A stretch of DNA of 64,000 nucleotides from Bacteroidales bacterium (GTDB lineage: Bacteria; Bacteroidota; Bacteroidia; Bacteroidales; SZUA-534): NCBI GenBank assembly GCA_045640185.1, contig JAZUEN010000053.1, positions 6,289 to 70,288 of the forward strand, written 5' to 3'. The notes beneath the pieces were generated by a model. That model worked only from the letters and a program-made list of their open reading frames with translations, ran no database searches and had not been told where the DNA came from. Shown here piece by piece: positions 4,639 to 47,087 of the stretch (positions are counted from its first letter, which is position 1; every line of letters begins with the position of its first letter). A program made the translations under genes and the position numbers.

Positions 4639-4728
4639 GGAGAAATGGCCGAGTGGTCTAAGGCGCACGCCTGGAAAGTGTGTATACCGCGTGAAACGGT
4701 ATCGTGGGTTCGAATCCCCCTTTCTCCG
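4639..4728 (+). tRNA. tRNA-Ser (anticodon GGA)
   Basis: Acceptor stem GGAGAAA/TTTCTCC. D-arm GCCGAGTGGTCTAAGGC. Anticodon stem CACGC/GTGTG with loop CTGGAAA. Long variable arm TATACCGCGTGAAACGGTATC. T-arm GGGTTCGAATCCC. No encoded CCA. Confidence 0.9.
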
Positions 4729-22625: not shown

Positions 22626-23585
22626 ATGGACAAATCGCAAGAAATAGCCCGATTATATTCAAGATACGAATGCTTGTCAAAAGAAATCCGTGAAATAAAG
22701 AGCAAAGGCCCATTCCATAAAAATTTCATGTACCTGCCGGCCTATATCCGACGCGATTCCGTAAAAAAGGACTTTTTCAGACTGCTAGAGCAACACCCTA
22801 TAGATGTGACGTGTGAAGCGCCAAAAAACAATATCCTGGTGTCGCTAACCAGCTTCCCTTCCAGAATAGGCATCGTGCACCTGGTCATCAAATCAATGAT
22901 GCTGCAAAATACGGCGCCTGAAAAAATCATCCTTTGGCTTTCGAAAGATGAATTTCCAAACCAGATGGAAGACCTGCCAGAAAGCCTGAAATCGCTGCAA
23001 GGCAACATGTTCAGCATAGCGTTTGTCGATGGCAACATGAAATCGCACAAGAAGTACTACTACGCATTTCAGCAATATCCCGGCTATTCAATAGTCACCG
23101 TCGACGATGACCTGTGCATGCCGTTTGATACCATAACGCGCCTGCAAAAGCTGTCGATAAGGTTTCCCAACTCAGTATGCTCCAATGTAATAAGGGTTAT
23201 TGAAACCCAAAACGGAGAATTCCGGAAATACAAAGAATGGAAAAAGATTGACATGCCAGAGCCTTCAGAATCCATGAATTATGTATCAATAGGCTACGGA
23301 GGAGTGATGTATCCACCTGTGTGCTTCAAAAATTTTGAATTCGACACAAACCTGATATTCAGCCTTTGCCCAAATGCCGACGACCTATGGCTAAAGGCAA
23401 ACGAAATAAAGGAGAATATTGCCGTCGCCTCAGGAGGCGTAGAGTTCATCCATCCCATAACCATACCCAACACGCAAAAACACAGCCTGCAACGGACCAA
23501 CAACAGCAGTTCACAGCAGAACGACATTCAATGGAACCAAACATGCGCCCATTTCGGAATAAAGCCGTTCCCAGTCACCGCATAG
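22626..23585 (+). CDS. putative glycosyltransferase (DXD-type), uncharacterised family
   Basis: LVSLTSFPSRI...IVTVDDDLCMP (DXD) and ADDLWLK motifs. Adjacent to the GT2 gene. Confidence 0.5.
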   Translation: MDKSQEIARLYSRYECLSKEIREIKSKGPFHKNFMYLPAYIRRDSVKKDFFRLLEQHPIDVTCEAPKNNILVSLTSFPSRIGIVHLVIKSMMLQNTAPEKIILWLSKDEFPNQMEDLPESLKSLQGNMFSIAFVDGNMKSHKKYYYAFQQYPGYSIVTVDDDLCMPFDTITRLQKLSIRFPNSVCSNVIRVIETQNGEFRKYKEWKKIDMPEPSESMNYVSIGYGGVMYPPVCFKNFEFDTNLIFSLCPNADDLWLKANEIKENIAVASGGVEFIHPITIPNTQKHSLQRTNNSSSQQNDIQWNQTCAHFGIKPFPVTA

Positions 23586-23917
23586 AACCCACAACATCAC
23601 CATTCGCACAACGCGTCTATGAAGCCGTCAGCCAAATACCGCAAGGCGAAGTGCGCACTTATGGCGACATAGCAAAGATGATTGGCTGCCGAAGCGCCCA
23701 AGCCGTTGGACAGGCATTGAGACACAACCCTTACGCGCCTGAAGTTCCTTGCCACCGCGTAGTCGCCGCTGATGGTAGCCTATGTGGCTTTTTCGGCAAA
23801 AACGACGCCCACGCCCTTAGACAAAAACGACAACTGCTCGAATCGGAGGGCATAATTTTTGACGCAAATGGAAAAGTTGCATGCCTAATGAAAAAAGGCA
23901 CAGACCGGCAAGCATGA
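23531..23917 (+). CDS. MGMT-family methylated-DNA--protein-cysteine methyltransferase (DNA-binding/active-site domain only)
   Basis: YGDIAKMIG...AVGQALRHNP....PCHRVV active-site motif. Start at 23531 or 23543, overlapping the preceding gene. The longer ORF from 23366 is an out-of-frame read-through of the GT gene. Confidence 0.75.
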   Translation: MEPNMRPFRNKAVPSHRIEPTTSPFAQRVYEAVSQIPQGEVRTYGDIAKMIGCRSAQAVGQALRHNPYAPEVPCHRVVAADGSLCGFFGKNDAHALRQKRQLLESEGIIFDANGKVACLMKKGTDRQA

Positions 23918-24124
23918 CTATGCCTTAAGAAATTTTCTATAAATTGCATTATGGTGATTTTGAATAATTTGTCAGGCGGGTTGATTGTTTAAGCGAAGGA
24001 GCAACGCCTTAAAAAAACAACAATATATAATTATCCAACAGACAATTATCACATTCAACGTCTAAGTATTTTTCGTAAAAACGCACAAAGCGTATATAAT
24101 AGGTGTTATTTTTATAAAAATTTC

Positions 24125-24132
24125 TACATTTG
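24125..24132 (+). promoter_or_regulatory. putative -7 promoter box (TACATTTG) for the ilv leader
   Basis: Matches TAnnTTTG. Lies 19 nt upstream of the leader ATG at 24151. Confidence 0.35.
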
Positions 24133-24150
24133 CCATCGAAAGCAAAAAAG

Positions 24151-24213
24151 ATGAAAAACGTAATGAACATAGTCGTTCCTGTATTTCGCGTGGTCGTGGT
24201 GGTCTGCGAATAA
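24151..24213 (+). CDS. ilv operon leader peptide (MKNVMNIVVPVFRVVVVVCE)
   Basis: 20-codon mini-ORF with 9 Val and 1 Ile, including a run of five Val codons. Its stop codon is followed 1 nt later by antiterminator and terminator segments. Confidence 0.6.
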   Translation: MKNVMNIVVPVFRVVVVVCE

Positions 24214-24279
24214 GGAAGGGCTATATTTAATTATAACATAAGTTACTACGAGCCCTTCCATTTTGGTTGGGCTTTTTTT
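24214..24279 (+). promoter_or_regulatory. transcription attenuator (antiterminator/terminator) upstream of ilvD
   Basis: Segment 2 GGAAGGGCT (24214-24222) is perfectly complementary to segment 3 AGCCCTTCC (24251-24259). Segment 3 also pairs with segment 4 TGGTTGGGC (24264-24272), which is followed by T7 (24273-24279). Segment 1 AGTCGTTCC (24171-24179) can pair with segment 2. Confidence 0.6.
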
Positions 24280-24301
24280 ATTTTGAATAAATTCTAAGGA
24301 T

Positions 24302-26107
24302 ATGAAACATACACTACGAAGCGCACAAACAACCGAAGGCCGCAGAATGGCCGGTGCGCGCGCCCTATGGGTGGCAAACGGTATGAAGCGTGAGCAAATG
24401 GGCAAGCCTATCATTGCCATTGCAAATTCATTCACCCAATTTGTTCCAGGTCACACACACCTGCACGAAATTGGCCAGATAGTGAAAGCCGAAATCGAAA
24501 AACTTGGATGCTACGCCGCCGAATTCAACACCATAGCCATCGACGACGGAATAGCAATGGGTCACGATGGAATGCTCTACTCTTTGCCTTCACGCGACAT
24601 CATTGCCGACTCTGTTGAATATATGTGCAATGCCCATAAGGCCGATGCGCTCGTATGCATAAGCAACTGCGACAAGATAACCCCGGGAATGCTGATGGCA
24701 TCAATGAGGCTGAACATACCTACAGTCTTTGTTTCAGGCGGACCAATGGAAGCCGGAAAATGGAACGGCGAAAATGCCGACCTCATCACGGCAATGGTCA
24801 AGTCTGCCGATTCTTCAATAAGCGATGAGCAGGTTAAGGATATCGAAAACTGCGCTTGCCCAGGTTGTGGTTCTTGTTCAGGAATGTTCACTGCAAACTC
24901 AATGAACTCGCTTACCGAAGCCATTGGATTGAGCCTTCCGGGCAACGGCACCATACTTGCAACACACGCAAACCGTATCCAACTGTTCAAGGACGCAGCT
25001 GCACTCATCGTAAAAAATGCTTACAAATATTATGAGGAAGGCGACGAAAGCGTTCTTCCGAAAAGCATTGCAACACGTCAGGCGTTCCTGAACGCAATGA
25101 CACTCGACATTGCAATGGGTGGCTCAAGCAACACAGTTCTTCACCTTTTGGCTGTTGCCTACGAGGCAGGAGTCAATTTCAAGATGCAGGATATCGACAT
25201 GCTAAGCCGCAAGGTTCCGTTCCTATGCAAGTTGGCACCAAACACACAAAAATACTCTATTCAGGAATGCAACCGCGCCGGTGGCATCTTGGGAATTCTC
25301 AACGAACTAAACAAGGTTGGTCTGCTTGACACATCAGTAAAACGCGTCAATGGAGCGACGCTTGCCGAGGACTTGAAGAAGTACTACATCTGCGGAAGCA
25401 CAATAGACCCAGAGGCACAACGCATATACGAAAGTGCGCCAGGCGGCAAGTTCAGCACAAAGATGGGTTCACAGTCAACAAAATGGGAATCGTTTGATAC
25501 CGACCGCGCCAACGGATGCATCCGTGACGTTGAGCACGCATACTCGAAAGACGGCGGATTGGCAGTATTGTTCGGCAACATCGCCAAGGACGGCTGCATA
25601 ATCAAGACTGCAGGCGTTGACGAAAGTCTGTGGCACTTCAGCGGACCGGCAAAAGTATTTGACTCGCAAGAAGATGCCTGCGATGGAATTTTGGGAGGCA
25701 AAATAAAGGCCGGCGATGTTGTGGTGATCACAAATGAAGGACCAAAAGGCGGACCAGGCATGCAGGAAATGCTTTATCCGACATCCTACATCAAGAGCAT
25801 GCACCTTGGCAAGGAATGCGCCCTCATCACCGACGGACGTTTCTCGGGTGGAACATCAGGCCTGTCAATCGGCCATATTTCGCCGGAAGCCGCAGCAGGT
25901 GGCGCAATCGGCAAGATTGTTGACGGCGACATCATAGAGATAGATATTCCTACACGTTCAATAAACGTCAAACTGAGCGATGCCGAACTTGAGGCACGTC
26001 CAATGCGTCCATTGACACGCAAGCGCGTTGTCGCAAAATCACTTAAGGCATACGCAAGCATGGTAAGTTCAGCCGACAAGGGCGCAATCAGAATAATACC
26101 TGAATAA
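24302..26107 (+). CDS. ilvD: dihydroxy-acid dehydratase
   Basis: [24 protein letters not shown] and [17 protein letters not shown] motifs. Length 601 aa. Confidence 0.95.
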
Positions 26108-26146: not shown

Positions 26147-27844
26147 ATGGCAGATAAGATTACAGGCGCAGAGGCACTTATGCGTTCGCTCGAAAACGAA
26201 GGCGTCGAGGTAATGTTCGGTTACCCTGGCGGTGCCATAATGCCTACATTTGATGCGCTATACGACCACACAAAGAAACTTAACCACATATTGGTACGCC
26301 ACGAGCAGGCTGCGGCCCACGCCGCACAAGGCTATGCACGTGTCAGCGGCAAGGTGGGTGTCTGTCTGGTAACAAGCGGACCTGGCGTCACCAACACCAT
26401 AACAGGCATTGCCGATGCAATGATGGACAGCACCCCTATTGTGGTGATTGCCGGACAGGTAGGAGCATCTTTTTTGGGTAGCGACGCCTTTCAGGAAGTC
26501 GACCTTGTAGGCGTGACACAGCCTATCAGCAAATGGGCATACCAGATTCGCCGTCCAGAAGATGTGGCCTGGGCTGTAAGCCGCGCATTCTACATTGCGC
26601 GCAGCGGTAGGCCAGGACCTGTTGTGCTCGACTTTGCAAAAAACGCACAAGTAGGGACCGTTGAATACGAACCGCAACACATCGACTTTATCCGTGGCTA
26701 TGTTCCAGAGCCGGAAATTGACGACGAAGCCATACAGGAAGCGGCAAGGCTGATAAACGCAGCCGAACGTCCATTGGTGCTTGTCGGGCAAGGCGTGGAA
26801 CTTGGAAACGCACAGCAGGAACTCCGCAACATGATTGAAAAAGCCGACATGCCCGCAGGATGCACATTGCTCGGACTTTCGACCTTGCCATCGGACCACA
26901 GGCTGAATGTAGGAATGCTTGGCATGCACGGAAGCCTTGCATCAAACATCAAGACACAAAAATGCGATTTGCTGATAGCCGTAGGAATGCGTTTCGACGA
27001 CAGAATAACAGGCAAGTTAAGCACCTACGCCACTCAGGCAAAGAAGATTCACTTCGATATCGACCCGTCGGAAATAAACAAGAACGTCAAAGTTGACGTG
27101 CCTGTGCTTGGCAATTGCAAGCAGACTCTTGCGGCTGTGACCAAACTGATAAACAACGCCAAGCATACCGAGTGGATACAAAGTTTCGAGCCTTACTACG
27201 AGCAGGAAAAGGAGATGGTAATAGAAAAGGAAATACATCCAACCTCTGGCCCGATAAAAATGGGCGAAGTGGTGAATGTAGTGACCGAGCAGACTAACAA
27301 CCAAGCTGTTTTGGTCACCGATGTCGGCCAAAACCAAATGATGGCGGCCCGATACTTCAAGTTCACCAAAAACCGAAGCATAGTGACATCAGGCGGAATG
27401 GGCACAATGGGATTTGGCATACCTGCCGGCATAGGCGCCGCATTTGGCGCTCCCGACCGCGACATCTGCGTGTTCCTGGGCGACGGAGGCCTGCAAATGA
27501 CAATTCAGGAATTCGGCACCATCATGGAGCACCAAATACCTGTAAAGCTGATTCTCATGAACAACAGCTTCTTGGGCAACGTGCGTCAGTGGCAAGCCAT
27601 GTTCTTCAATCACAGGTACTCGTTCACACCAATGAAAAATCCTGATTTCATGAAGATAGCATCGGCTTACAACATTCCATGCAACACTGTAGTGAAGAGA
27701 GAGAATCTGGCAAGCGCCGTAAAGAAGATGATGGACACAAAAGGCCCGTACCTGCTGCAGGTGGCTGTGGAGGAAGAAGGCAATGTGCTGCCAATGTGCG
27801 CACCTGGCCACGATGTCGATGATATGATGTTGGAATACAAATAA
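26147..27844 (+). CDS. ilvB: acetolactate synthase large subunit (biosynthetic type)
   Basis: ThDP enzyme motifs GYPGGAIMP, TSGPGVTNTITGIADA and GGMGTMGFGIPAGIGA...GDGGLQM. Confidence 0.95.
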   Translation: MADKITGAEALMRSLENEGVEVMFGYPGGAIMPTFDALYDHTKKLNHILVRHEQAAAHAAQGYARVSGKVGVCLVTSGPGVTNTITGIADAMMDSTPIVVIAGQVGASFLGSDAFQEVDLVGVTQPISKWAYQIRRPEDVAWAVSRAFYIARSGRPGPVVLDFAKNAQVGTVEYEPQHIDFIRGYVPEPEIDDEAIQEAARLINAAERPLVLVGQGVELGNAQQELRNMIEKADMPAGCTLLGLSTLPSDHRLNVGMLGMHGSLASNIKTQKCDLLIAVGMRFDDRITGKLSTYATQAKKIHFDIDPSEINKNVKVDVPVLGNCKQTLAAVTKLINNAKHTEWIQSFEPYYEQEKEMVIEKEIHPTSGPIKMGEVVNVVTEQTNNQAVLVTDVGQNQMMAARYFKFTKNRSIVTSGGMGTMGFGIPAGIGAAFGAPDRDICVFLGDGGLQMTIQEFGTIMEHQIPVKLILMNNSFLGNVRQWQAMFFNHRYSFTPMKNPDFMKIASAYNIPCNTVVKRENLASAVKKMMDTKGPYLLQVAVEEEGNVLPMCAPGHDVDDMMLEYK

Positions 27845-27853
27845 AAAACTCAA

Positions 27854-28414
27854 ATGGAACAAGAAGAAAAGACACTATACACCATATTGGTTTTCTCTGA
27901 AAACCTGGCTGGCTTGCTGAACCAGATTACAGCCGTATTTACTCGCCGTCAGGTAAACATTGAAAGTCTAAATGTCTCTGCATCAAGCATCAAAGGCATA
28001 CACAAATACACTATCACCTGCTATAGCGATGCGGAAACAATAGAAAAGATAACTCGCCAGATTGAACGGAAGATAGATGTCATTCAGGCGAACTATTACA
28101 CTGACAACGAGATATTTATCCAAGAATGTGGATTGATGAAGATATCTACGCCTGTCTTGCTTGAGAACAAGCAGGTATCGCGCAGCATCCGAATCCACGA
28201 TGCAAACATAGTGGAGGTGAACCCCACTTATGCCATTGTCACAAAATGCGGATTGACTGAAGATATCGAGTCTCTGTATCAGGCATTGAAAAGCTGCAAA
28301 TGCGTCCTGCAATATGTCCGTTCTGGCCGAATAGCAATAACCAAGAGCCATACAGAGCACATCAGCGACTACATAAATGCACGCGAACAGAAATACAGGG
28401 AATCGAAAGCGTAA
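27854..28414 (+). CDS. ilvN: acetolactate synthase small (regulatory) subunit
   Basis: ACT-domain N-terminus YTILVFSENLAGLLNQITAVFTRRQVNIESLNV. Lies immediately downstream of ilvB. Confidence 0.85.
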   Translation: MEQEEKTLYTILVFSENLAGLLNQITAVFTRRQVNIESLNVSASSIKGIHKYTITCYSDAETIEKITRQIERKIDVIQANYYTDNEIFIQECGLMKISTPVLLENKQVSRSIRIHDANIVEVNPTYAIVTKCGLTEDIESLYQALKSCKCVLQYVRSGRIAITKSHTEHISDYINAREQKYRESKA

Positions 28415-28542: not shown

Positions 28543-29586
28543 ATGGCACAGATGAATTTTGGCGGTGTTATTGAAAACGTAATGACCCGCGAAGAATTTC
28601 CATTGGAAAAAGCACGTGAAATCCTGAAAAACGAGACCATCGCAGTTATCGGCTATGGCGTACAAGGCCCAGGCCAATCATTGAACCTGCGCGACAATGG
28701 TTTCAACGTAATCGTAGGCCAACGTCAAGGCAAGACTTACGACAAGGCCGTTGCCGACGGTTGGGTTCCTGGCAAGACATTGTTCAGCATTGAAGAAGCA
28801 GCAGAAAAAGCAACTATCGTAATGTGCTTGCTTTCTGACGCCGCAGTTATGAGCGTATGGCCAAGCCTTCAAAAGTATCTCACTCCAGGCAAGGCACTTT
28901 ACTTCTCTCACGGTTTTGCCATCACCTGGAACGACCGCACAGGTTGCGTTCCTGCAAAAGACATCGACGTCATCATGGTTGCTCCTAAAGGCTCAGGCAC
29001 ATCACTCCGTACCATGTTCCTTGAAGGACGCGGCTTGAACTCTTCATACGCTGTTTACCAAGATGCAACAGGCAAGGCAATGGACCGCACCTTGGCTCTT
29101 GGCATCGGCATCGGCTCTGGCTACCTGTTCGAGACTACATTCCAACGCGAGGCTACATCAGACCTTACTGGCGAGCGTGGCTCACTGATGGGTGCAATCC
29201 AAGGCTTGCTGCTTGCTCAATACGAAGTATTGCGTGAGAACGGCCACACTCCTTCTGAGGCATTCAACGAGACTGTTGAGGAGCTTACACAATCGCTTAT
29301 GCCATTGTTCGCAAAGAACGGCATGGACTGGATGTACGCAAACTGCTCAACAACCGCTCAACGTGGCGCTCTTGACTGGATGGGCCCATTCCACGATGCC
29401 ATCAAGCCAGTTGTAGAGAAACTCTACGCTTCAGTTAAATGCGGCAACGAGGCTCAAATCTCAATTGACGCCAACTCTAAACCAGACTACCGTGCCGGCC
29501 TTGAAAAAGAACTTAAGGCTTTGCGCGAGAGCGAAATGTGGCAGACTGCAGTCACTGTACGCAAATTGCGTCCTGAAAACAACTAA
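28543..29586 (+). CDS. ilvC: ketol-acid reductoisomerase
   Basis: IAVIGYGVQGPGQSLNLRDNG Rossmann motif and SHGF...PKGSG motifs. Length 347 aa. Confidence 0.95.
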   Translation: MAQMNFGGVIENVMTREEFPLEKAREILKNETIAVIGYGVQGPGQSLNLRDNGFNVIVGQRQGKTYDKAVADGWVPGKTLFSIEEAAEKATIVMCLLSDAAVMSVWPSLQKYLTPGKALYFSHGFAITWNDRTGCVPAKDIDVIMVAPKGSGTSLRTMFLEGRGLNSSYAVYQDATGKAMDRTLALGIGIGSGYLFETTFQREATSDLTGERGSLMGAIQGLLLAQYEVLRENGHTPSEAFNETVEELTQSLMPLFAKNGMDWMYANCSTTAQRGALDWMGPFHDAIKPVVEKLYASVKCGNEAQISIDANSKPDYRAGLEKELKALRESEMWQTAVTVRKLRPENN

Positions 29587-29609: not shown

Positions 29610-29640
29610 AAGGCTATCCAAAAAAGGATAGCCTTTTTTT
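29610..29640 (+). terminator. rho-independent terminator after ilvC
   Basis: AAGGCTATCC-AAAAAA-GGATAGCCTT followed by a T-run. Confidence 0.8.
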
Positions 29641-29763: not shown

Positions 29764-29771
29764 TACATTTG
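29764..29771 (+). promoter_or_regulatory. putative -7 promoter box (TACATTTG)
   Basis: Matches TAnnTTTG. Lies 17 nt upstream of the ATG at 29788. Confidence 0.35.
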
Positions 29772-29787: not shown

Positions 29788-31143
29788 ATGACAATGAGAA
29801 CCTTTACAAGAATTTTCACCTGTACATTAATGGCCACTGCCGCCATGTTCACATCATGCGACAATGCAAACAAAGGCAACACTTTCACAGCAAACGTGGA
29901 ATCGAAAGCTTGCGTAGCCGACACTTCAATACACTATTCAGTATACGTTCCAAAATCAGATAGTGAAAAACTTCCAGTAATTCTTTTCTTCGACCCTCAC
30001 AACCAAGGAGACATACCTGTCAGCACTTATGCGGAATTGGCATCGAAATACCAATATATACTTATTGGCAGCAACGACTTGCATAACGGGCAATCAGCTT
30101 TTCAAACCGAGAAAATAATTCTCGGCCTGCTTAACGAAGCCGAGACCCAATACAAGATTGACGAAAACAGAATATACCTGTGCGGTTTTTCCGGTGGAGC
30201 AAAAGTTGCAATGATGTATGGCCTCAACATGCCAGAAATAAGCGGTGTGGCCGCATGTGGCGGCAGCATCGCCCCGTCACACAAACCCGATTCGTCGTTC
30301 TGCTTTGTGGGCATGGTCGGGAACAAGGACTTCAACTATCTTGACATGCAACAGACACTGTCGCAATTCAACAAGATGAACGTTCCTTTCACTTCCGTCG
30401 TATTCGACGGCAAACATGAATGGCCATCAGCCAACGACTTCGAAACCGCATTCATATCATTTGAAATAAACGCCATGCATACAGGTGCCACACCTGCAAA
30501 CGTTGACTGGCTGAAATCTGTATACAACAAGCTAAGCAACGAAGTCAACCATCACATGGAAATGGGCGAATACGTAAAGAGTTCGGAACTCATAGGCCGG
30601 ATACAAGGATGGTTCGGCTCTGTAGCAAACGACATAAGGCTCTCTACATTCTTGACAAACCTGAATTCGAACCAGATATACAAGAACCAACTGTCAAAAA
30701 TCCAAAATCTGGCACAAAAGGAAGTTACACTTCGTGGCCAATTCATAGGTTCTGTCGAAAGCCGCGATTTGGAATGGTGGAAAACCGAAGTTGAGAACTT
30801 CAAGACAAGCATTGCAAGCAAAGACGAACTGGTAAGCCTTACCAGCCAACGCCTCATGGCATATTTGAGCATGATGTCGTACTCACTTGCCGACAACGAA
30901 ATATTAAGCAACAATGCCGATGCGGCCCTGAAAAGACTGCAGATTTACGAAATGGTTGACCCCGACAATACCGATGTCTATCTGATGTTCGCCCGCTATT
31001 ACCTTATGACCGGCAACAAAGAACAAATGGTGGAAAGCTACAAAAAGGCTGTTGAAAAAGGATTCACCGACAATGCCCAATACGCTTCCGACCCAACATG
31101 GAAGATGCTTTTTGCCCAACCAGAAATCAAGGCTTTGCAATAG
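29788..31143 (+). CDS. lipoprotein alpha/beta-hydrolase (esterase) with C-terminal helical/TPR-like domain
   Basis: Lipobox MFTSC. Nucleophile elbow GFSGGAKVA. Esterase-like N-terminal 220 aa and a helical C-terminal half. Confidence 0.6.
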   Translation: MTMRTFTRIFTCTLMATAAMFTSCDNANKGNTFTANVESKACVADTSIHYSVYVPKSDSEKLPVILFFDPHNQGDIPVSTYAELASKYQYILIGSNDLHNGQSAFQTEKIILGLLNEAETQYKIDENRIYLCGFSGGAKVAMMYGLNMPEISGVAACGGSIAPSHKPDSSFCFVGMVGNKDFNYLDMQQTLSQFNKMNVPFTSVVFDGKHEWPSANDFETAFISFEINAMHTGATPANVDWLKSVYNKLSNEVNHHMEMGEYVKSSELIGRIQGWFGSVANDIRLSTFLTNLNSNQIYKNQLSKIQNLAQKEVTLRGQFIGSVESRDLEWWKTEVENFKTSIASKDELVSLTSQRLMAYLSMMSYSLADNEILSNNADAALKRLQIYEMVDPDNTDVYLMFARYYLMTGNKEQMVESYKKAVEKGFTDNAQYASDPTWKMLFAQPEIKALQ

Positions 31144-42870: not shown

Positions 42871-45800
42871 TTACTTTACAAGTTCAACCTTTATATAAAG
42901 ATTAACGTCGTCGTCAATGTCAACAGTAATGGCATTGTCGGCGTTAAGGTTGCCCACAATATCGATGCTGTTGGCAAGTGTTTGTCCAGCAATGTATTGC
43001 TTGAATGCCACAATGGCATTGTCGGAATAGTCGTTTGCCGAAATCTGAATGTTAATCTTGTCGGTAACTTCAAATCCGCTATCCTTGCGGATGTTCTGTA
43101 TGCGGTTCACAAGTTCGCGGGCCACGCCCTCGTTCTTCAGTTCGTCGGTGATGGTTATGTCGAGAGCCACTGTCAGAGTGCCCTCGTTGGTAACCAGCCA
43201 GCCAGGAATGTCTTCCGAAACAATCTCGACATCGGAACGAACCAGTGTCAAGGGCTGACCGTCGGCAACAATGTCGAACTTCTCGTCTGATTCAAGTTGG
43301 GCGATGTCCTCTTGGCTCATTTGTGCTATGGCAGACGAAATCTGCTTCATTATCTTGCCGTATTTCGGACCAAGCACCTTGAAGTCGGGCTTGATGCGCT
43401 TAACCAATATGCCTGTCGTGTTTTCCAAAAGTTCGACTTCCTTCACGTTCACTTCGGTCATTATTATTGACTTGACGGCCTCAATTTGGCGACGCATCTT
43501 GTCGCTGTGGATAGGAACCATAATCTTGCTCAGTGGCTGACGGACCTTCAGGCTCACCTTTCGGCGCAAGCCAAGAACCATTGACGACACGCGCTGTGCC
43601 ATAGCCATACGTTCCTCAAGGTCGGTGTCGATTGCCGACTCGTCAAAAGCAGGGAAGTTTGTCAGGTGCACTGATGTGGCGCAACGTCCTGTAGCGGTGT
43701 TGAGGTCCTTGAACAGCATATCCATATAGAATGGCGCAATAGGACTGCCTAGGATGGACACTGTTTCAAGGCAGGTGTAAAGTGTTTGGTAAGCGGAAAT
43801 CTTGTCGTTGTCGTATTGTCCGCCCCAGAAGCGCTTGCGGTTGAGGCGCACGTACCAGTTGCTCAGGTTGTCGATTACGAAATCCTGAATGGCGCGTCCT
43901 GCGCGTGTAGGCTCATAGTTGTCGAGTGCGTCCTGAACTTCCTTGATGAGCGAGTTCAGCAACGACAGTATCCAGCGGTCGATTTCAGGACGCTCGGCCA
44001 GCGGAATATCCTTCTCCTTATATGTAAAGCCGTCGACATTGGCATACAATGCAAAGAAACTGTATGTATTATAGAGTGTTCCGAAGAATTTGCGCTTTAC
44101 TTCGTCAACACCTTCAATGTCGAATTTCAGGTTGTCCCAAGGCTGTGCGTTGGTTATCATATACCAGCGCAACGGGTCGGAACCGTATTTTTCGATTGTC
44201 TCGAACGGGTCAACGGCATTGCCCAGACGTTTTGACATCTTGCTTCCGTTCTTGTCAAGAACGAGTCCGTTGCTGATGATGTTCTTGAAGGCCACCTTGC
44301 CGTTTATCATTGTGCTGATGGCGTGCAGAGTGTAGAACCAGCCACGTGTTTGGTCGACGCCTTCGGCGATGAAGTCGGCAGGATATAGCGTGTTGAAGTC
44401 GTCCTTGTGCTCAAATGGCCAGTGGCGTTGTGCGAAAGGCATTGCGCCAGAGTCGAACCACACGTCGATAAGGTCCTTCTCGCGGTACATAGGCTGTCCG
44501 TTTGACGAGACAAGCACCACGCCGTCGATGTATGGGCGGTGAAGGTCAATCTTCTCGTAGTTGTCCTTTGAGTAGTCGCCCACCTTGAAGCCTTTGGCTG
44601 TGTAAGGATTTTCCTTCATTATTCCAGCCTTGATAGCCTTCTCTATCTCACTGCAAAGTTCCTCAACCGAGCCGATGCATAACTCTTCGGAGCCGTCTTC
44701 GGTGCGCCAGATAGGAAGCGGTGTGCCCCAATAGCGTGAACGGCTGAGGTTCCAGTCGTTGAGGTTCTCGAGCCACTTGCCGAATCGGCCTTCGCCAGTG
44801 CTTTGAGGCTTCCAGTTGATGGTCTTGTTAAGTTCGAACATTTGGTCCTTGACAGCCGATGCCTTGATGAACCAACTGTCGAGCGGGTAGTAGAGCACGG
44901 GCTTGTCGGTGCGCCAGCAATGCGGATAGTTGTGAACGTGCTTTTCAATCTTGAACACAGTGCCGTCGGCCTTCATCTTCATACAGATGAAGATGTCGAG
45001 GTTTTCGGCCTTCTGCGCCGACTGCTCGTCGTATTTTCCGTCGACGGTGAACTGCGGGTCGTAGGCGTTCTTAACCCAACGGCCTTCATATTCCTTATAG
45101 ATGTCGGTCTTTACAAAATCTTTAGCGAAACTGCTGTCGAGGTCCGATATGAAGTAGTATTTGCCTGTCATATCGACCATTGGACGGGTTTCGCCAGCCT
45201 TGTTGATCATAAACAGCGACGGTATGCCAGCCAACTTGGCCACTTTGGCGTCGTCGGCGCCGAAGGTAGGCGCAATGTGGACAATGCCCGTGCCGTCTTC
45301 GGTAGTTACATAGTCGCCAGGGATTACGCGGAAAGCATCAGCCTTCTTGTTGACAATCTTCTTATCGACCAATTCGCAAGGGTCAACCCAAGGGAAGAGT
45401 TGCTCGTAGTGGATGCCAACAAGGTCGGAGCCCTTCATTTCGGCGATGATGTTGCCAGGGTTCTTGTCGTTGAAGTAGGCGCTGAAACGTGCCTTTGCCA
45501 CAATGACGGTGCATTTCTGCTCGGTATACGGGTTCTGTGTCTCAACAGCGACATAGTCGATTTTCGGCCCTACGCACAATGCCGTGTTTGAAGGCAATGT
45601 CCAAGGAGTTGTTGTCCAGGCGATAATGTAGAGTTGCTTGTATTCATCGCCAGCCTTGCCAATGATGTCTTTTACAAGAGCGTTGTCGTTGTCGGTAACC
45701 TTGAACTGCGCGGTGCAGGTGGTATCCTTGACATCGCGGTAGCAACCAGGTTGGTTTAGTTCGTGCGACGAAAGTCCAGTGCCTGCGGCAGGCGAATAAG

Positions 45801-46344
45801 GCTGAATGGTGTAGCCCTTGTACAGCAATCCTTTCTTGTAGATTTCCTTCAGCAAGTACCACAACGACTCGATGTATCGGTTGTCGTAAGTGATGTAAGG
45901 GTCGTCCATATTGACCCAATATCCCATTTTGGCGGTAAGGTCGCGCCAAAGGTCGGTGTATTTCATCACCTCTGAACGGCAGGCGCGGTTGTAGTCGTCA
46001 ACGCTGATTTTCTTGCCGATGTCTTCCTTGGTGATTCCGAGTTGCTTTTCCACGCCAAGTTCGACAGGCAGTCCGTGAGTGTCCCAGCCAGCCTTGCGGT
46101 CCACCAGGAATCCTTGCAGAGTCTTGTAACGGCAAATAATATCCTTTATGCTACGTGCCATAACGTGGTGAATGCCAGGCTTGCCGTTGGCCGATGGTGG
46201 TCCTTCGAAGAAAATGAATTTTGGATGGCCTTCACGGGCATCGATGCTCTTTTGGAATGTGTTTTCCTTGTTCCATTCAGCAAGTACGTCCTTGTTGATT
46301 TGTGACAAGTCTAACTGCTTGTGTTCGGGGAATTTACCGCTCAT
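42871..46344 (-). CDS. ileS: isoleucine--tRNA ligase
   Basis: Class I motifs PPSANGKPGIHHV (HIGH) and KMSKRLGN (KMSKS). Length 1157 aa. Confidence 0.95.
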   Translation of the reverse strand: MSGKFPEHKQLDLSQINKDVLAEWNKENTFQKSIDAREGHPKFIFFEGPPSANGKPGIHHVMARSIKDIICRYKTLQGFLVDRKAGWDTHGLPVELGVEKQLGITKEDIGKKISVDDYNRACRSEVMKYTDLWRDLTAKMGYWVNMDDPYITYDNRYIESLWYLLKEIYKKGLLYKGYTIQPYSPAAGTGLSSHELNQPGCYRDVKDTTCTAQFKVTDNDNALVKDIIGKAGDEYKQLYIIAWTTTPWTLPSNTALCVGPKIDYVAVETQNPYTEQKCTVIVAKARFSAYFNDKNPGNIIAEMKGSDLVGIHYEQLFPWVDPCELVDKKIVNKKADAFRVIPGDYVTTEDGTGIVHIAPTFGADDAKVAKLAGIPSLFMINKAGETRPMVDMTGKYYFISDLDSSFAKDFVKTDIYKEYEGRWVKNAYDPQFTVDGKYDEQSAQKAENLDIFICMKMKADGTVFKIEKHVHNYPHCWRTDKPVLYYPLDSWFIKASAVKDQMFELNKTINWKPQSTGEGRFGKWLENLNDWNLSRSRYWGTPLPIWRTEDGSEELCIGSVEELCSEIEKAIKAGIMKENPYTAKGFKVGDYSKDNYEKIDLHRPYIDGVVLVSSNGQPMYREKDLIDVWFDSGAMPFAQRHWPFEHKDDFNTLYPADFIAEGVDQTRGWFYTLHAISTMINGKVAFKNIISNGLVLDKNGSKMSKRLGNAVDPFETIEKYGSDPLRWYMITNAQPWDNLKFDIEGVDEVKRKFFGTLYNTYSFFALYANVDGFTYKEKDIPLAERPEIDRWILSLLNSLIKEVQDALDNYEPTRAGRAIQDFVIDNLSNWYVRLNRKRFWGGQYDNDKISAYQTLYTCLETVSILGSPIAPFYMDMLFKDLNTATGRCATSVHLTNFPAFDESAIDTDLEERMAMAQRVSSMVLGLRRKVSLKVRQPLSKIMVPIHSDKMRRQIEAVKSIIMTEVNVKEVELLENTTGILVKRIKPDFKVLGPKYGKIMKQISSAIAQMSQEDIAQLESDEKFDIVADGQPLTLVRSDVEIVSEDIPGWLVTNEGTLTVALDITITDELKNEGVARELVNRIQNIRKDSGFEVTDKINIQISANDYSDNAIVAFKQYIAGQTLANSIDIVGNLNADNAITVDIDDDVNLYIKVELVK

Positions 46345-46602
46345 AATATCATCAATTAAAACATATCGGTTTCTAAGGGAGAAATGTTAGTGTTCACCCT
46401 AAAAGTCTGCAAATATAATTATCAATTACAAATAATGAATTGCGAAACAGGTTTGTCAACGAATATAGCGAATTTGACCAATGCTTTTTTGGTTTTAATC
46501 ACTTGCTAATGCCCGCAGGCGAGCCGACGAATTGGACGGATTTTTACTGTTTTTGGGTGATAGAAATAATATTAGTATCTTTGCGCAAGATCAAATTTCG
46601 TT

Positions 46603-46812
46603 ATGACAACGGTCCAATTGACATATAATGAGAATGATAAGGTGGCGACAAAAGCATTTGAGTCGCTAAAGGCGCTTGGCTTGTTTGAAATTAAAGAGAC
46701 AATGTCGACGTCGAAGAAAAAAACCCTTAAGGCAATTGATGATGCCCGCAAAGGCAAAAACATCACCAAGTGCGAAACATTCGAAGACTATCTCAAAGCC
46801 GTATCGGAATGA
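46603..46812 (+). CDS. putative antitoxin of the YafQ/RelE-type pair
   Basis: 69-aa ORF whose stop overlaps the toxin start (ATGA at 46809-46812). No obvious RHH or HTH motif by eye. Confidence 0.5.
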   Translation: MTTVQLTYNENDKVATKAFESLKALGLFEIKETMSTSKKKTLKAIDDARKGKNITKCETFEDYLKAVSE

Positions 46813-47087
46813 GAAGAATCGACATCACCAACCAATACAAAAAAGACCTAAAACTAGAAAGAAAACGGAATCTGCAAGAAGATAAACTCAATGAGATAAT
46901 TTTGAAACTTGCAAAAAATGAGGAATTGCCCCAGCAAAATAGGGATCACGCATTACACGGCGATTTTGAAGGTACTCGCGAATGCCACATTGTGCCAGAT
47001 TGGCTACTCATTTACAGCAAAGAAGACAGCGATTCCATAAAAATTCTGACATTAATCAGAACAGAAACACATTCAGAGTTGTTCTAA
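46809..47087 (+). CDS. type II toxin, YafQ/RelE family mRNA interferase
   Basis: MRRIDITNQYKKDLKL...DHALHGDFEGTRECHIVPDWLLIY matches the YafQ signature. Start at the internal Met, giving 92 aa. Confidence 0.75.
   Translation: MRRIDITNQYKKDLKLERKRNLQEDKLNEIILKLAKNEELPQQNRDHALHGDFEGTRECHIVPDWLLIYSKEDSDSIKILTLIRTETHSELF

Follow-up and report, generated by a model that had tools for sequence, protein, structure and literature searches.

Does the short valine-rich reading frame that precedes ilvD in a rumen Bacteroidales genome serve as the sensor of a switch controlling the genes behind it? An earlier note on the window, by which we mean the whole 64,000-nt stretch of DNA analysed, had recognized here the classic layout of leader-peptide attenuation. 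Our follow-up supports this reading, as every feature of the layout that is testable on the sequence is present in the window, and we consider the region very probably a ribosome-mediated transcription attenuator of ilvD-ilvB-ilvN-ilvC that senses the charging of Val (and Ile) tRNA.

Gene order and predicted transcription start

The identities of the four structural genes were taken from NCBIfam equivalog models. The promoter box, which was located by sequence and pattern search, the genes and the end of the operon are arranged as follows:

24125-24132, plus strand: Bacteroidetes-type -7 promoter box TACATTTG (TAnnTTTG), 18 nt 5' of the leader ATG
24302-26107, plus strand: ilvD, dihydroxy-acid dehydratase (NCBIfam NF009103, 1024 bits; TIGR00110), first structural gene after the attenuator
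26147-27844, plus strand: ilvB, acetolactate synthase large subunit (TIGR00118, 680 bits)
27854-28414, plus strand: ilvN, acetolactate synthase small subunit (TIGR00119, 88.7 bits, over the cut-off)
28543-29586, plus strand: ilvC, ketol-acid reductoisomerase (TIGR00465, 311 bits), last gene of the operon
29610-29640, plus strand: intrinsic terminator at the operon end, a 10-bp stem and T run directly after ilvC

Judging from the position of the box, the leader transcript would start near 24137-24140. TAnnTTTG by itself is not enriched in the 64-kb window, where it was found 43 times against about 50 expected. Among the relatives that bear a leader, however, the motif lies 11-43 nt 5' of the leader ATG in 27 of 33, with TACATTTGCC kept in L081-L087, while neither in these 33 nor in the window did the pattern search place it in the interval from leader stop to ilvD. 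With the box preceding the leader and missing from this interval, it appears that ilvD can be transcribed by read-through only. The gene upstream of the leader ends at 23585 and has a terminator-like site of its own at 23835-23852.

The predicted leader peptide

24151-24213, plus strand: leader mini-ORF with its ATG at 24151, 20 sense codons and TAA at 24211-24213, encoding MKNVMNIVVPVFRVVVVVCE

The 20-codon frame reported in the earlier note was recovered at the same coordinates, and the peptide MKNVMNIVVPVFRVVVVVCE contains the nine Val and one Ile that had been counted. In the closest relatives (L001, L081-L087) the peptide reads MKNLVNIVISLVVVVVVCG; the MKN N-terminus and the Val run are kept, and within the run these sequences differ at third codon positions only (GTG/GTC).

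The comparison set consisted of 80 ilvD loci from other genomes, of which 42.5% have a V/I/L-rich mini-ORF upstream, compared to 3-6% of controls. V, I and L together make up 53% of the residues in the leaders of relatives (V 20%, I 17.5%, L 16%), and other hydrophobic residues are scarce, with F at 1.4%, A at 3.3% and W at 0.1%. Outside the branched-chain run the peptide sequences diverge freely, and the ORF, its V/I/L enrichment and the register between stop codon and segment 2 are kept even where the nucleotide sequence is not. We infer that the leader is translated, and stalling, coupling to the polymerase and a response to Val/Ile are inferred with it.

A scan of the 64 kb for mini-ORFs with an amino-acid run and a downstream terminator returned the ilvD leader site and three incidental ones. 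The mini-ORF MSILLIPIRL (46793-46825, minus strand) before ileS was set aside, as it lies about 450 nt upstream and beyond the ileS promoter box. An antisense ORF at 24124-24435 (minus strand) that overlaps the start of ilvD was taken as spurious.

Alternative helices in the leader RNA

24169-24180, plus strand: segment 1, spanning the Ile7-Val8-Val9-Pro10 codons; its partner, segment 2, was assigned from the minimum free energy (MFE) fold and duplex prediction
24213-24224, plus strand: segment 2, adjoining the stop codon; 24214-24222 forms the 5' half of the antiterminator helix, and 24213-24224 pairs with segment 1
24250-24260, plus strand: segment 3, pairing with segment 2 in the antiterminator (through 24251-24259) or with segment 4 in the terminator
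24264-24274, plus strand: segment 4, 3' arm of the terminator hairpin
24273-24279, plus strand: T7 tract of the intrinsic terminator, ending 22 nt 5' of the ilvD ATG (24302)

The antiterminator strand of segment 2 (GGAAGGGCT, 24214-24222) has its first base directly after the stop codon, and segment 3 (AGCCCTTCC, 24251-24259) is its exact reverse complement, so that the two form a perfect 9-bp helix, in agreement with what had been noted before. The 2:3 duplex has an energy of -18.8 kcal/mol, whereas dinucleotide shuffles give -8.9 ± 2.1 kcal/mol and are equally good in 3 of 3000 cases. Segment 2 is purine-rich and resembles a Shine-Dalgarno sequence (GGAAGG in the window, GAGAAAGG in most relatives and GAGGAGGU in L022 and L073). 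Pyrimidines predominate in segment 3, which looks like an anti-Shine-Dalgarno sequence.

The competing terminator stem consists of GAGCCC (24250-55) paired with GGGCUU (24269-74) and CCA (24258-60) paired with UGG (24264-66), separated by a UU/UU internal loop. Hairpin and T7 together occupy 24250-24279 with an energy of -13.0 to -13.6 kcal/mol. The 3:4 terminator, its T7 and the 22-nt spacing thus stand as originally proposed, but the stem is somewhat wider than the TGGTTGGGC given for it. It is missing from the output of a simple sigma-70/terminator consensus scan, which overlooked it because of the internal loop; the sigma-70 part of that scan is unsuitable here because Bacteroidetes promoters differ. 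The energies of the two mutually exclusive structures, whose comparison the earlier note had suggested as a check, are about -15 kcal/mol for the 9-bp 2:3 helix and about -13 kcal/mol for the 3:4 terminator.

The MFE fold of the leader combines 1:2 with 3:4, and the complete fold has a z of -2.5. For segment 1 an imperfect pairing of AGTCGTTCC (24171-24179) with segment 2 had been described; the pairing holds, but its extent had been underestimated, since the helix between AUAGUC-G-UUCCU (24169-24180) and AGGAA-G-GGCUAU (24213-24224) is longer and stronger, with 11 bp and one G/G mismatch. This duplex reaches -15.0 kcal/mol, compared to -7.5 ± 1.7 kcal/mol in dinucleotide shuffles (1 of 3000 equally good; z = -4.4). 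The consensus fold for the clade of the window retains the 1:2 helix, which is convincing only in this clade and in some lineages; its support among distant relatives is weak and not significant (median z = -0.75).

Conservation among ilvD loci

24207-24280, plus strand: match to covariance model R1, which runs from segment 2 to the T tract (41.4 bits, E = 2e-7); sole match in the window

The score of the window against R1 is not independent, because the window sequence is in the seed. The model matches just upstream of ilvD in 37 of the 80 loci (E < 1e-3), and the six of these that are outside the seed (L011, L018, L029, L039, L042, L076) are independent matches. Carriers belong to Bacteroides, Phocaeicola, Paludibacter, Alistipes, Odoribacter, Prolixibacteraceae and Marinilabiliales, cultivable ones being Bacteroides graminisolvens DSM 19988 (L018), Phocaeicola faecalis (L011) and Odoribacter laneus (L064), and the linkage of the segment 2-3-4 unit to ilvD, as given by the R1 matches, spans orders. 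The scan of orthologs that had been called for thus found both Val/Ile-rich mini-ORFs and covarying stems, and about 40 Bacteroidales/Bacteroidia ilvD loci share the attenuator layout and show covariation in it; the lack of conservation that would have counted against the proposal was not seen. Tandem double attenuators occur in Marinilabiliales and Prolixibacteraceae.

A strong terminator follows the stop codon within 20-52 nt in 34 of 36 V/I/L-rich mini-ORFs, mostly 17-45 nt before ilvD, and a T run of 4-10 is kept in all relatives; the terminator of the window, at -13 kcal/mol and with its internal loop, is the weakest of the set. Segment 2 starts at a median of 2 nt 5' of the first base of the stop codon (within -6 to +6 nt in 28 of 32 relatives), and a TGA stop is often located inside the segment 2 helix (UGAGAAAGG).

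Segments 2, 3 and 4 co-vary as triplets; one column, for example, reads A-U-A in 16 sequences, G-C-G in five and U-A-U in four. The 2:3 positions are paired in 78% of cases, compared to 42-63% when the strands are slid against each other (0 of 500 shuffles), and the 3:4 positions in 90% over 34 sequences, with compensatory changes in 8 of 12 pairs (0 of 500 shuffles). These pair counts, being based on a covariance model, lean toward the modelled structure, and segment 2 is out of register in several rows of the MAFFT alignments (A1, A2) and of the covariance-model alignment (A5). Because of these register errors, duplex mapping in each sequence and an own-versus-cross control were added. Segment 3 pairs 4.7 kcal/mol better with its own upstream spacer than with spacers taken from relatives whose segment 3 differs, an advantage seen in 32 of 34 cases (Wilcoxon p = 5e-7); the shuffle and Wilcoxon controls are uncorrected for shared ancestry. 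L002, the second-closest IlvD relative, and the loci labelled Prevotellaceae lack the element, which is therefore dispensable in some lineages.

Ribosome stalling and the proposed switch

Where would a ribosome have to stall in order to release the antiterminator? A first masking model, which allowed pairing across the ribosome and predicted termination for stalls at codons 16-17, was rejected as sterically unrealistic. In the redone model the footprint extends 11-15 nt 3' of the A-site codon, no pairing is allowed across the ribosome, and only RNA 3' of it is free to fold. Modelled stalls at codons 5-17 leave segment 2 free and favour the antiterminator, which includes I7, V8, V9, V11 and V14-V17 and thus eight of the ten Val/Ile codons; V4 gives the antiterminator only with the longest footprint and V18 only with the shortest, while with the ribosome on C19, on E20 or at the stop codon the terminator forms. 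This model largely resolves the concern that segment 2 could be occluded by a ribosome stalled on the final Val codons. The predicted geometry is that of leader-peptide attenuators, in which a ribosome at the stop codon masks segment 2 and one at the regulatory codons frees it.

We propose that transcription begins a few nucleotides past the TACATTTG box and that the 20-codon leader is translated behind the moving RNA polymerase. With Val-tRNA (and Ile-tRNA) well charged, the ribosome would reach the TAA and cover segment 2, because segment 2 begins on the next base; segment 3 would then pair with segment 4, and the hairpin and U7 would end transcription 22 nt before ilvD. When charging is low, the ribosome would stall at Ile7, Val8, Val9, Val11 or Val14-17, sitting on or past segment 1 and leaving segment 2 exposed to capture segment 3 through 9 bp as soon as the latter is made. 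The terminator would thereby be blocked and the polymerase would enter ilvD. If the leader were not translated, 1:2 should form and 3:4 should terminate. Read-through would in this scheme be regulated by the supply of Val/Ile and depend on leader translation.

Competing explanations

Could a real switch at this site be set by something other than the ribosome? Either 2:3 or 3:4 might be stabilized by a factor acting in trans, be it a protein that binds RNA, a small RNA or a metabolite, with the mini-ORF sensing nothing. The sequences of segments 2, 3 and 4 are indeed unusually conserved across families (AAGCCUUUCUCA / GAGAAAGG), beyond strict pairing needs, and the 1:2 helix is poorly conserved. 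We nevertheless hold such a factor to be improbable: the ORF, the V/I/L enrichment and the stop/segment 2 register persist where the nucleotide sequence differs, the enriched residues are specific to the end products of the operon, and the Rfam models of riboswitches, T-boxes and protein-binding leaders are unmatched. A strand with two pairing partners is expected to evolve slowly, which would explain the conserved segment sequences. Equally improbable in our judgement is a further constraint on segments 2-4 beyond three-way pairing, for instance that the 16S 3' end of the terminating ribosome binds segment 2 and so enforces termination, with the tandem attenuators as a second layer of the same device. 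Shine-Dalgarno pairing is generally unused in Bacteroidota, so that such binding would be unexpected there, and the slow evolution of a doubly constrained strand is the simpler explanation.

That ilv expression is merely damped by the hairpin and T7, acting as a leaky, constitutive terminator or marking where an upstream transcript ends, with 2:3 arising by chance, is a very unlikely reading. It would suit the imperfect stem in the window and its absence from the simple consensus scan, but 2:3 is equalled by only 3 of 3000 shuffles and co-varies with 3:4 in relatives, the upstream gene already ends at 23585 with its own terminator-like site (23835-23852), and the promoter box precedes the leader. 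We would give still less credence to the view of the mini-ORF as a gene with a terminator to itself, whose product would be a functional small hydrophobic (membrane) peptide, ilvD being transcribed independently. The peptide is short and hydrophobic like many small membrane proteins and a good terminator follows it; its composition, however, favours V, I and L only, F, A, M, W and G being very scarce, and beyond the branched-chain run its sequence varies freely among relatives. Moreover, the 22 nt between T tract and ilvD ATG lack TAnnTTTG in the window and in 33 relatives, the triple-covarying antiterminator would be without a role, and the linkage to ilvD is kept across orders. No more probable is an effect of leader translation on the translation of ilvD, by re-initiation or unmasking of the start, instead of on transcription. 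Leader ORFs near structural genes have been proposed to raise translation via re-initiation, also in Bacteroidetes (PMC4833913), yet the 88 nt from leader stop to ilvD ATG far exceed the 10-15 nt peak in that study. The T run of 4-10 is kept in all relatives, and the hairpin would leave the ilvD start codon unmasked because U7 follows and the hairpin ends 22 nt before the ATG. Ribosome-mediated attenuation thus remains our preferred reading.

Database searches and implications

In the 64-kb window no Rfam family except a tRNA reached its gathering score, and at permissive thresholds the best matches within 23900-24400 had E = 0.7-10 and were terminator-like chance hits. The Rfam 15 Leu, Thr, His and Trp leaders, the Bacteroid-trp motif (RF01692), the T-box and the ilv-associated motifs did not match the leader region of the window. 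Pfam and NCBIfam profiles, including PF08046 (IlvGEDA_leader), IlvB_leader and NF007744 (PRK10424), assigned its leader peptide to no family; the distant relative L043 gave sub-threshold compositional matches of 10.2 bits (PF08046) and 14.8 bits (NF007744) against cut-offs of 25 and 59. In the B. thetaiotaomicron transcriptome supplements, neither BT_2078, which we take to be ilvD of this species, nor 'ilvD' was among the entries listed. A literature search returned neither a description of the ilvD leader element nor Term-seq, reporter-fusion or Ribo-seq data on it, in line with the earlier remark that no experimental characterization was known in Bacteroidales; Vitreschak et al. 2004, who reportedly made computational attenuator predictions in 'Bacteroidetes/Chlorobi', lay outside that search.

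Because about 40 related Bacteroidales genomes share the layout, we regard the ilvDBNC leader, on comparative sequence evidence, as a real, conserved and presumably ribosome-sensing switch that is uncatalogued and mechanistically ordinary. As the mechanism would be a textbook one, it should hold little surprise for specialists. For a rumen Bacteroidales genome, the proposed switch supplies branched-chain amino-acid synthesis with a concrete mode of control that can be tested, and the element is widespread in Bacteroidia. Rfam, Pfam and NCBIfam have no entry for it, so that our alignment and covariance model could seed a new family and thereby help to annotate 5' leaders in genomes from gut and rumen. 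Bacteroidota largely dispense with Shine-Dalgarno initiation, and transcription-translation coupling has, to our knowledge, never been shown in them; a conserved leader-peptide attenuator would imply that ribosomes follow closely behind RNA polymerase and would provide indirect evidence for such coupling.

Relation to known attenuators

In E. coli, ilvGMEDA (leader ilvL) and ilvBN (leader ivbL) are attenuated by ribosome stalling on Val/Ile/Leu codons of the leader. The window resembles them in its short leader ORF rich in the end product, its terminator immediately preceding the first ilv gene, and its alternative antiterminator. There is no sequence relationship, however, and the gene order ilvD-B-N-C differs; the leader has 20 residues, almost purely Val, compared to 32 in the E. 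coli ilv leader, the promoter is of the Bacteroidetes type, a Shine-Dalgarno sequence is lacking, and segment 2 begins right after the stop. The Bacteroid-trp motif is interpreted as a Trp-codon leader-peptide attenuator. Like the window element it is a Bacteroidetes cis-regulatory leader before amino-acid biosynthesis genes, but it belongs to another operon and its Rfam model (RF01692) is unmatched. It has been listed as cis-regulatory and not as a riboswitch (Weinberg et al. 2010, PMC2864571).

The uORF attenuator of Corynebacterium ilvBNC (ilvB-II motif) was found by comparative genomics and tested with reporters (PMC10272879). Together with the ilvB-OMG and Leptospira ilvB motifs it shares with the window a conserved branched-chain-rich uORF and a strong terminator stem before ilv genes, but these motifs lie upstream of ilvB, in other phyla, and have GC-richer, unrelated sequences (PMC10272879); the ilvB-OMG alignment was accordingly rejected as a relative of the window element. 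For S. aureus ilv-leu, an attenuator peptide that controls branched-chain biosynthesis outside Proteobacteria has been described (PMC5794164); this peptide is Leu-rich, acts with CodY in a member of the Firmicutes and has no sequence similarity to ours.

The E. coli trp attenuator serves another amino acid and operon, has two adjacent regulatory codons where those of the window are spread over codons 7-17, and differs in that the 1:2 element of the window is poorly conserved beyond its clade. Both systems nevertheless have four segments with 1:2, 2:3 and 3:4 as alternatives, regulatory codons in or just after segment 1 and a stop near segment 2, and in both an untranslated leader is expected to adopt 1:2 and 3:4 and to terminate.

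The ilv leader and its operon

Upstream of ilvD, the window carries a Val-rich mini-ORF and strands that can pair in alternative ways, here called segments 1 to 4 (1:2, putative protector helix; 2:3, antiterminator; 3:4, terminator). An earlier note, made from the sequence alone, had proposed an attenuator at this place, and on reading 23800-24500 its coordinates were all borne out. The features are:

24125-24132 (+), −7 box TACATTTG, fitting the Bacteroidetes consensus TAnnTTTG, 18 nt 5' of the leader ATG
24151 (ATG) to 24211-24213 (TAA) (+), leader mini-ORF, product MKNVMNIVVPVFRVVVVVCE with 9 Val and 1 Ile
24169-24180 with 24213-24224 (+), 1:2 hairpin of the MFE fold, AUAGUC-G-UUCCU / AGGAA-G-GGCUAU
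24214-24222 (+), segment 2, GGAAGGGCT, first base directly 3' of the stop
24250-24274 (+), 3:4 hairpin of the MFE fold, GAGCCC-UU-CCA uuu UGG-UU-GGGCUU, then U7
24251-24259 (+), segment 3, AGCCCTTCC, exact reverse complement of segment 2
24273-24279 (+), T7 tract, ending 22 nt 5' of the ilvD ATG (24302)
29610-29640 (+), strong intrinsic terminator, 10-bp stem AAGGCTATCC/GGATAGCCTT and T run, 24 nt past the ilvC stop

The four ORFs downstream of the leader are ilvD, ilvB, ilvN and ilvC by NCBIfam equivalog models, and the strong terminator past ilvC indicates a four-gene operon that ends there. The next ORF, at 29788, has TACATTTG upstream at 29764-29771.

TAnnTTTG is not enriched across the window (43 matches vs ~50 expected). 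Among 33 leader-bearing relatives it lies 11-43 nt 5' of the leader ATG in 27, and between the leader stop and ilvD in none. Because only 22 nt separate the T tract from the ilvD ATG, ilvD must be transcribed through terminator read-through. A terminator-like hairpin with a T run at 23835-23860 (+), downstream of the preceding + strand ORFs, fits with transcription of the ilv leader from a promoter of its own.

Alternative folds and ribosome position

The MFE fold of 24125-24301 (−44.9 kcal/mol, z = −2.5) corresponds exactly to a four-segment attenuator in its 'terminated' state. The energies are −23.5 kcal/mol for the 1:2 region, −18.4 kcal/mol for the 2:3 region (−15.2 kcal/mol for the helix on its own) and −13.6 kcal/mol for the terminator. 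When the partner region was shuffled with dinucleotides preserved (n = 3000), the 2:3 duplex (−18.8) was equalled by three shuffles and the 1:2 duplex (−15.0) by one; the segments proposed in the earlier note are therefore real, although the note gave the 1:2 helix as shorter than it is. The proposed terminator is likewise present, but its stem is wider and is broken by a 2x2 loop.

The ribosome footprint was modelled as 11-15 nt 3' of the first A-site codon base, with folding restricted to RNA 3' of the ribosome; a version letting helices span the ribosome was discarded. The antiterminator is predicted for stalls at codons 5-17, that is at I7, V8, V9, V11 and V14-V17. The only Val/Ile codons outside this range, V4 and V18, give it with the longest and the shortest footprint only, respectively. 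With the ribosome at C19, E20 or the stop, segment 2 is covered and the terminator is predicted, as it also is near initiation (codons 1-3), where 1:2 forms. The concern that a stall on the final Val run may partly occlude segment 2 thus applies in this model to the last Val codon and not to the others.

Conservation in the window's clade

Seven further loci (L081-L087) with a leader of the type found in L001, MKNLVNIVISLVVVVVVCG, came from a pattern search in metagenome contigs; they also keep the ilvD start and the TACATTTGCC promoter box. In L001 (closest relative, 91% IlvD identity), ~220 nt of additional sequence separate the attenuator terminator from ilvD (L001:145-360), vs 22 nt in the window. 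The Val run of the clade differs from that of the window by GTG/GTC third-position changes only, and since the MKN start is kept, ATG 24151 is probably the leader start rather than the internal ATG 24163.

The RNAalifold consensus for the clade is 1:2 plus 3:4. Segment 2 (GGAAGGGCT, 24214-24222) is invariant in L001 and L081-L087 and fully complementary to segment 3, while segment 4 (24264-24274 in the window) is variable and imperfect in every member (GGAGGGGC, GGACGGGC, GGTTGGGC). With 2:3 perfect and segment 4 always imperfect, the terminator would be held weaker than the antiterminator, keeping the latter competitive.

Leader ORFs and terminators in relatives

An IlvD scan gave 80 loci, one genome per species, the closest being rumen Bacteroidales MAGs (91% and 84% identity). 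Mini-ORFs rich in Val, Ile and Leu (V/I/L; at least 6 per 8-residue window, at most 300 nt upstream of ilvD) were found in 42.5% of these loci, vs 3.4% of random 300-nt windows from the same loci and 6% in shuffles; at 7 of 8 or more, the figures were 27.5% and ~1% in controls. A strong hairpin with T4-T10 begins 20-52 nt past the stop in 34 of 36 such ORFs, for most of them 17-45 nt before the ilvD ATG. Relative to the first base of the stop codon, the antiterminator 5' strand of the best duplex begins at a median of 2 nt upstream, and between −6 and +6 nt for 28 of 32 relatives; a TGA stop often lies in the helix itself ('UGAGAAAGG'). In the other four the ORF is slightly longer and its final codons contain the segment-2 motif. 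The earlier note had suggested scanning related Bacteroidales for Val/Ile-rich mini-ORFs with covarying stems before ilvD/ilvB orthologs; V/I/L-rich ORFs and covarying stems are present upstream of ilvD.

Pooled leaders contain V 20%, I 17.5% and L 16% while F (1.4%), M (2.8%), A (3.3%) and W (0.1%) are low, a composition that fits regulatory codons and not a generic hydrophobic peptide. Apparent GTG or TTG starts occur in L076:2862-2921 (VKITLIHIIALILILVHST), L029:2326-2391 and L086, so ATG-only ORF scans under-count the element.

Covariation and distribution

Segments 2, 3 and 4 change as triplets when partners are mapped for each segment-3 position: one column reads A-U-A (16 times), G-C-G (5) or U-A-U (4), another G-C-G (20), A-U-A (2) or C-G-C (2), and a further one U-A-U (10), G-C-G (4) or C-G-C (2). 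R1, a covariance model of the antiterminator form from segment 2 to the T tract, matches the window once and, at E < 1e-3, lies directly upstream of ilvD in 37 loci, six of them from outside the seed (L011, L018, L029, L039, L042, L076). In the 34-sequence alignment from R1, the 3:4 helix was paired at 90.0% (43-63% when slid) with both-side changes at 8 pairs, and 2:3 at 78.4% (42-63%) with 5, a conservative figure because segment 2 is one or two columns out of register in several rows. None of 500 shuffles reached the covariation score of either helix, and in an alignment-free control, with spacers from relatives that have at least two differences in segment 3 as the comparison, each segment 3 paired 4.7 kcal/mol better with its own upstream spacer (32 of 34; Wilcoxon p = 5e-7), both statistics ignoring shared ancestry. 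For the window the values were −18.4 (own) vs −9.0 (cross mean).

Segment 2 is purine-rich and resembles a Shine-Dalgarno sequence (GGAAGG in the window, 24213-24222; GAGGAGGU in L022 and L073), and segment 3 is rich in pyrimidines. Across orders the two segments show strong sequence conservation, a pattern probably explained by the three-way pairing constraint.

By label, the loci that carry the element belong to Bacteroides, Phocaeicola, Paludibacter, Alistipes, Odoribacter, Azobacteroides, Rikenellaceae, Prolixibacteraceae and Marinilabiliales-type genera; L033 (Muribaculaceae) has leader ORF and terminator without an R1 match. Leader and terminator were not found in L002 (second-closest relative, 84% IlvD identity; L002:2770-3000) or in Prevotellaceae-labelled L004, L006, L007, L013, L020 and L058, and in these leaderless loci TAnnTTTG lies only ~25-40 nt from the ilvD ATG. 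The 5' UTR of L002 is ~130 nt long, and its hairpin, GCCGACGG...CTGTCGGC, is a different one. Among the 80 loci, those of Desulfobulbales, Spirochaetes, Fibrobacter and Acidobacteria yielded no element.

Some Dysgonomonadaceae and Proteiniphilum loci have a leuB-like gene before ilvD. Two tandem units, each a leader ORF with terminator, precede ilvD in L071:2583-2882 (ORFs MQLTAVIIINVIIRVLIGHESRLCIFN, then MLSSKLVIIVIIMVIVIIRMRMREGVHTQ; both units matched by R1), L072:2646-2945 and L049:2640-2936, from Ancylomarina, Labilibaculum and a Prolixibacteraceae MAG; the first ORF of L049 is far poorer in V/I/L.

Other sites in the window

Across the 64-kb window, only a 90-nt tRNA at 4639-4728 (+) reaches an Rfam gathering score. 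A 10-codon ORF, MSILLIPIRL (46793-46825, −), with hairpin and T run, lies ~450 nt upstream of the isoleucine-tRNA ligase gene ileS (42871-46344, −); it sits beyond the promoter-like box of ileS (46410-46417, −), where the opposite strand looks coding, and is probably due to chance.

Comparison with known attenuators

The comparative evidence is strong and supports the interpretation of the earlier note: judged from sequence, the ilvDBNC leader is very probably a ribosome-mediated attenuator, whose predicted sensed amino acid is mainly Val. Such an attenuator would imply transcription-translation coupling in Bacteroidota, and the element is of value for annotation and as the seed of a new RNA family. 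It is uncatalogued; its kind is well known and its mechanism textbook. No Rfam family matches the leader, and no Pfam/NCBIfam leader-peptide family the window peptide. Vitreschak et al. reportedly predicted attenuators 'in some cases' in Bacteroidetes/Chlorobi in 2004.

For Bacteroidaceae, the RegPrecise survey gives no more than two RNA regulogs; it describes Rfam as without Ile/Val attenuators and suggests a gamma-proteobacterial origin of amino-acid attenuators (PMC3766115). The B. thetaiotaomicron transcriptome paper goes no further than sORFs 'reminiscent of leader peptides' (PMC7366714). Attenuators with uORFs have been described upstream of ilvB in Corynebacterium, with ilvB-OMG and Leptospira ilvB as candidates (PMC10272879). 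The sequences of these three are unrelated to the window leader. In layout and logic the window leader matches the well-established trp, ilvGMEDA and ilvBN attenuators of E. coli.
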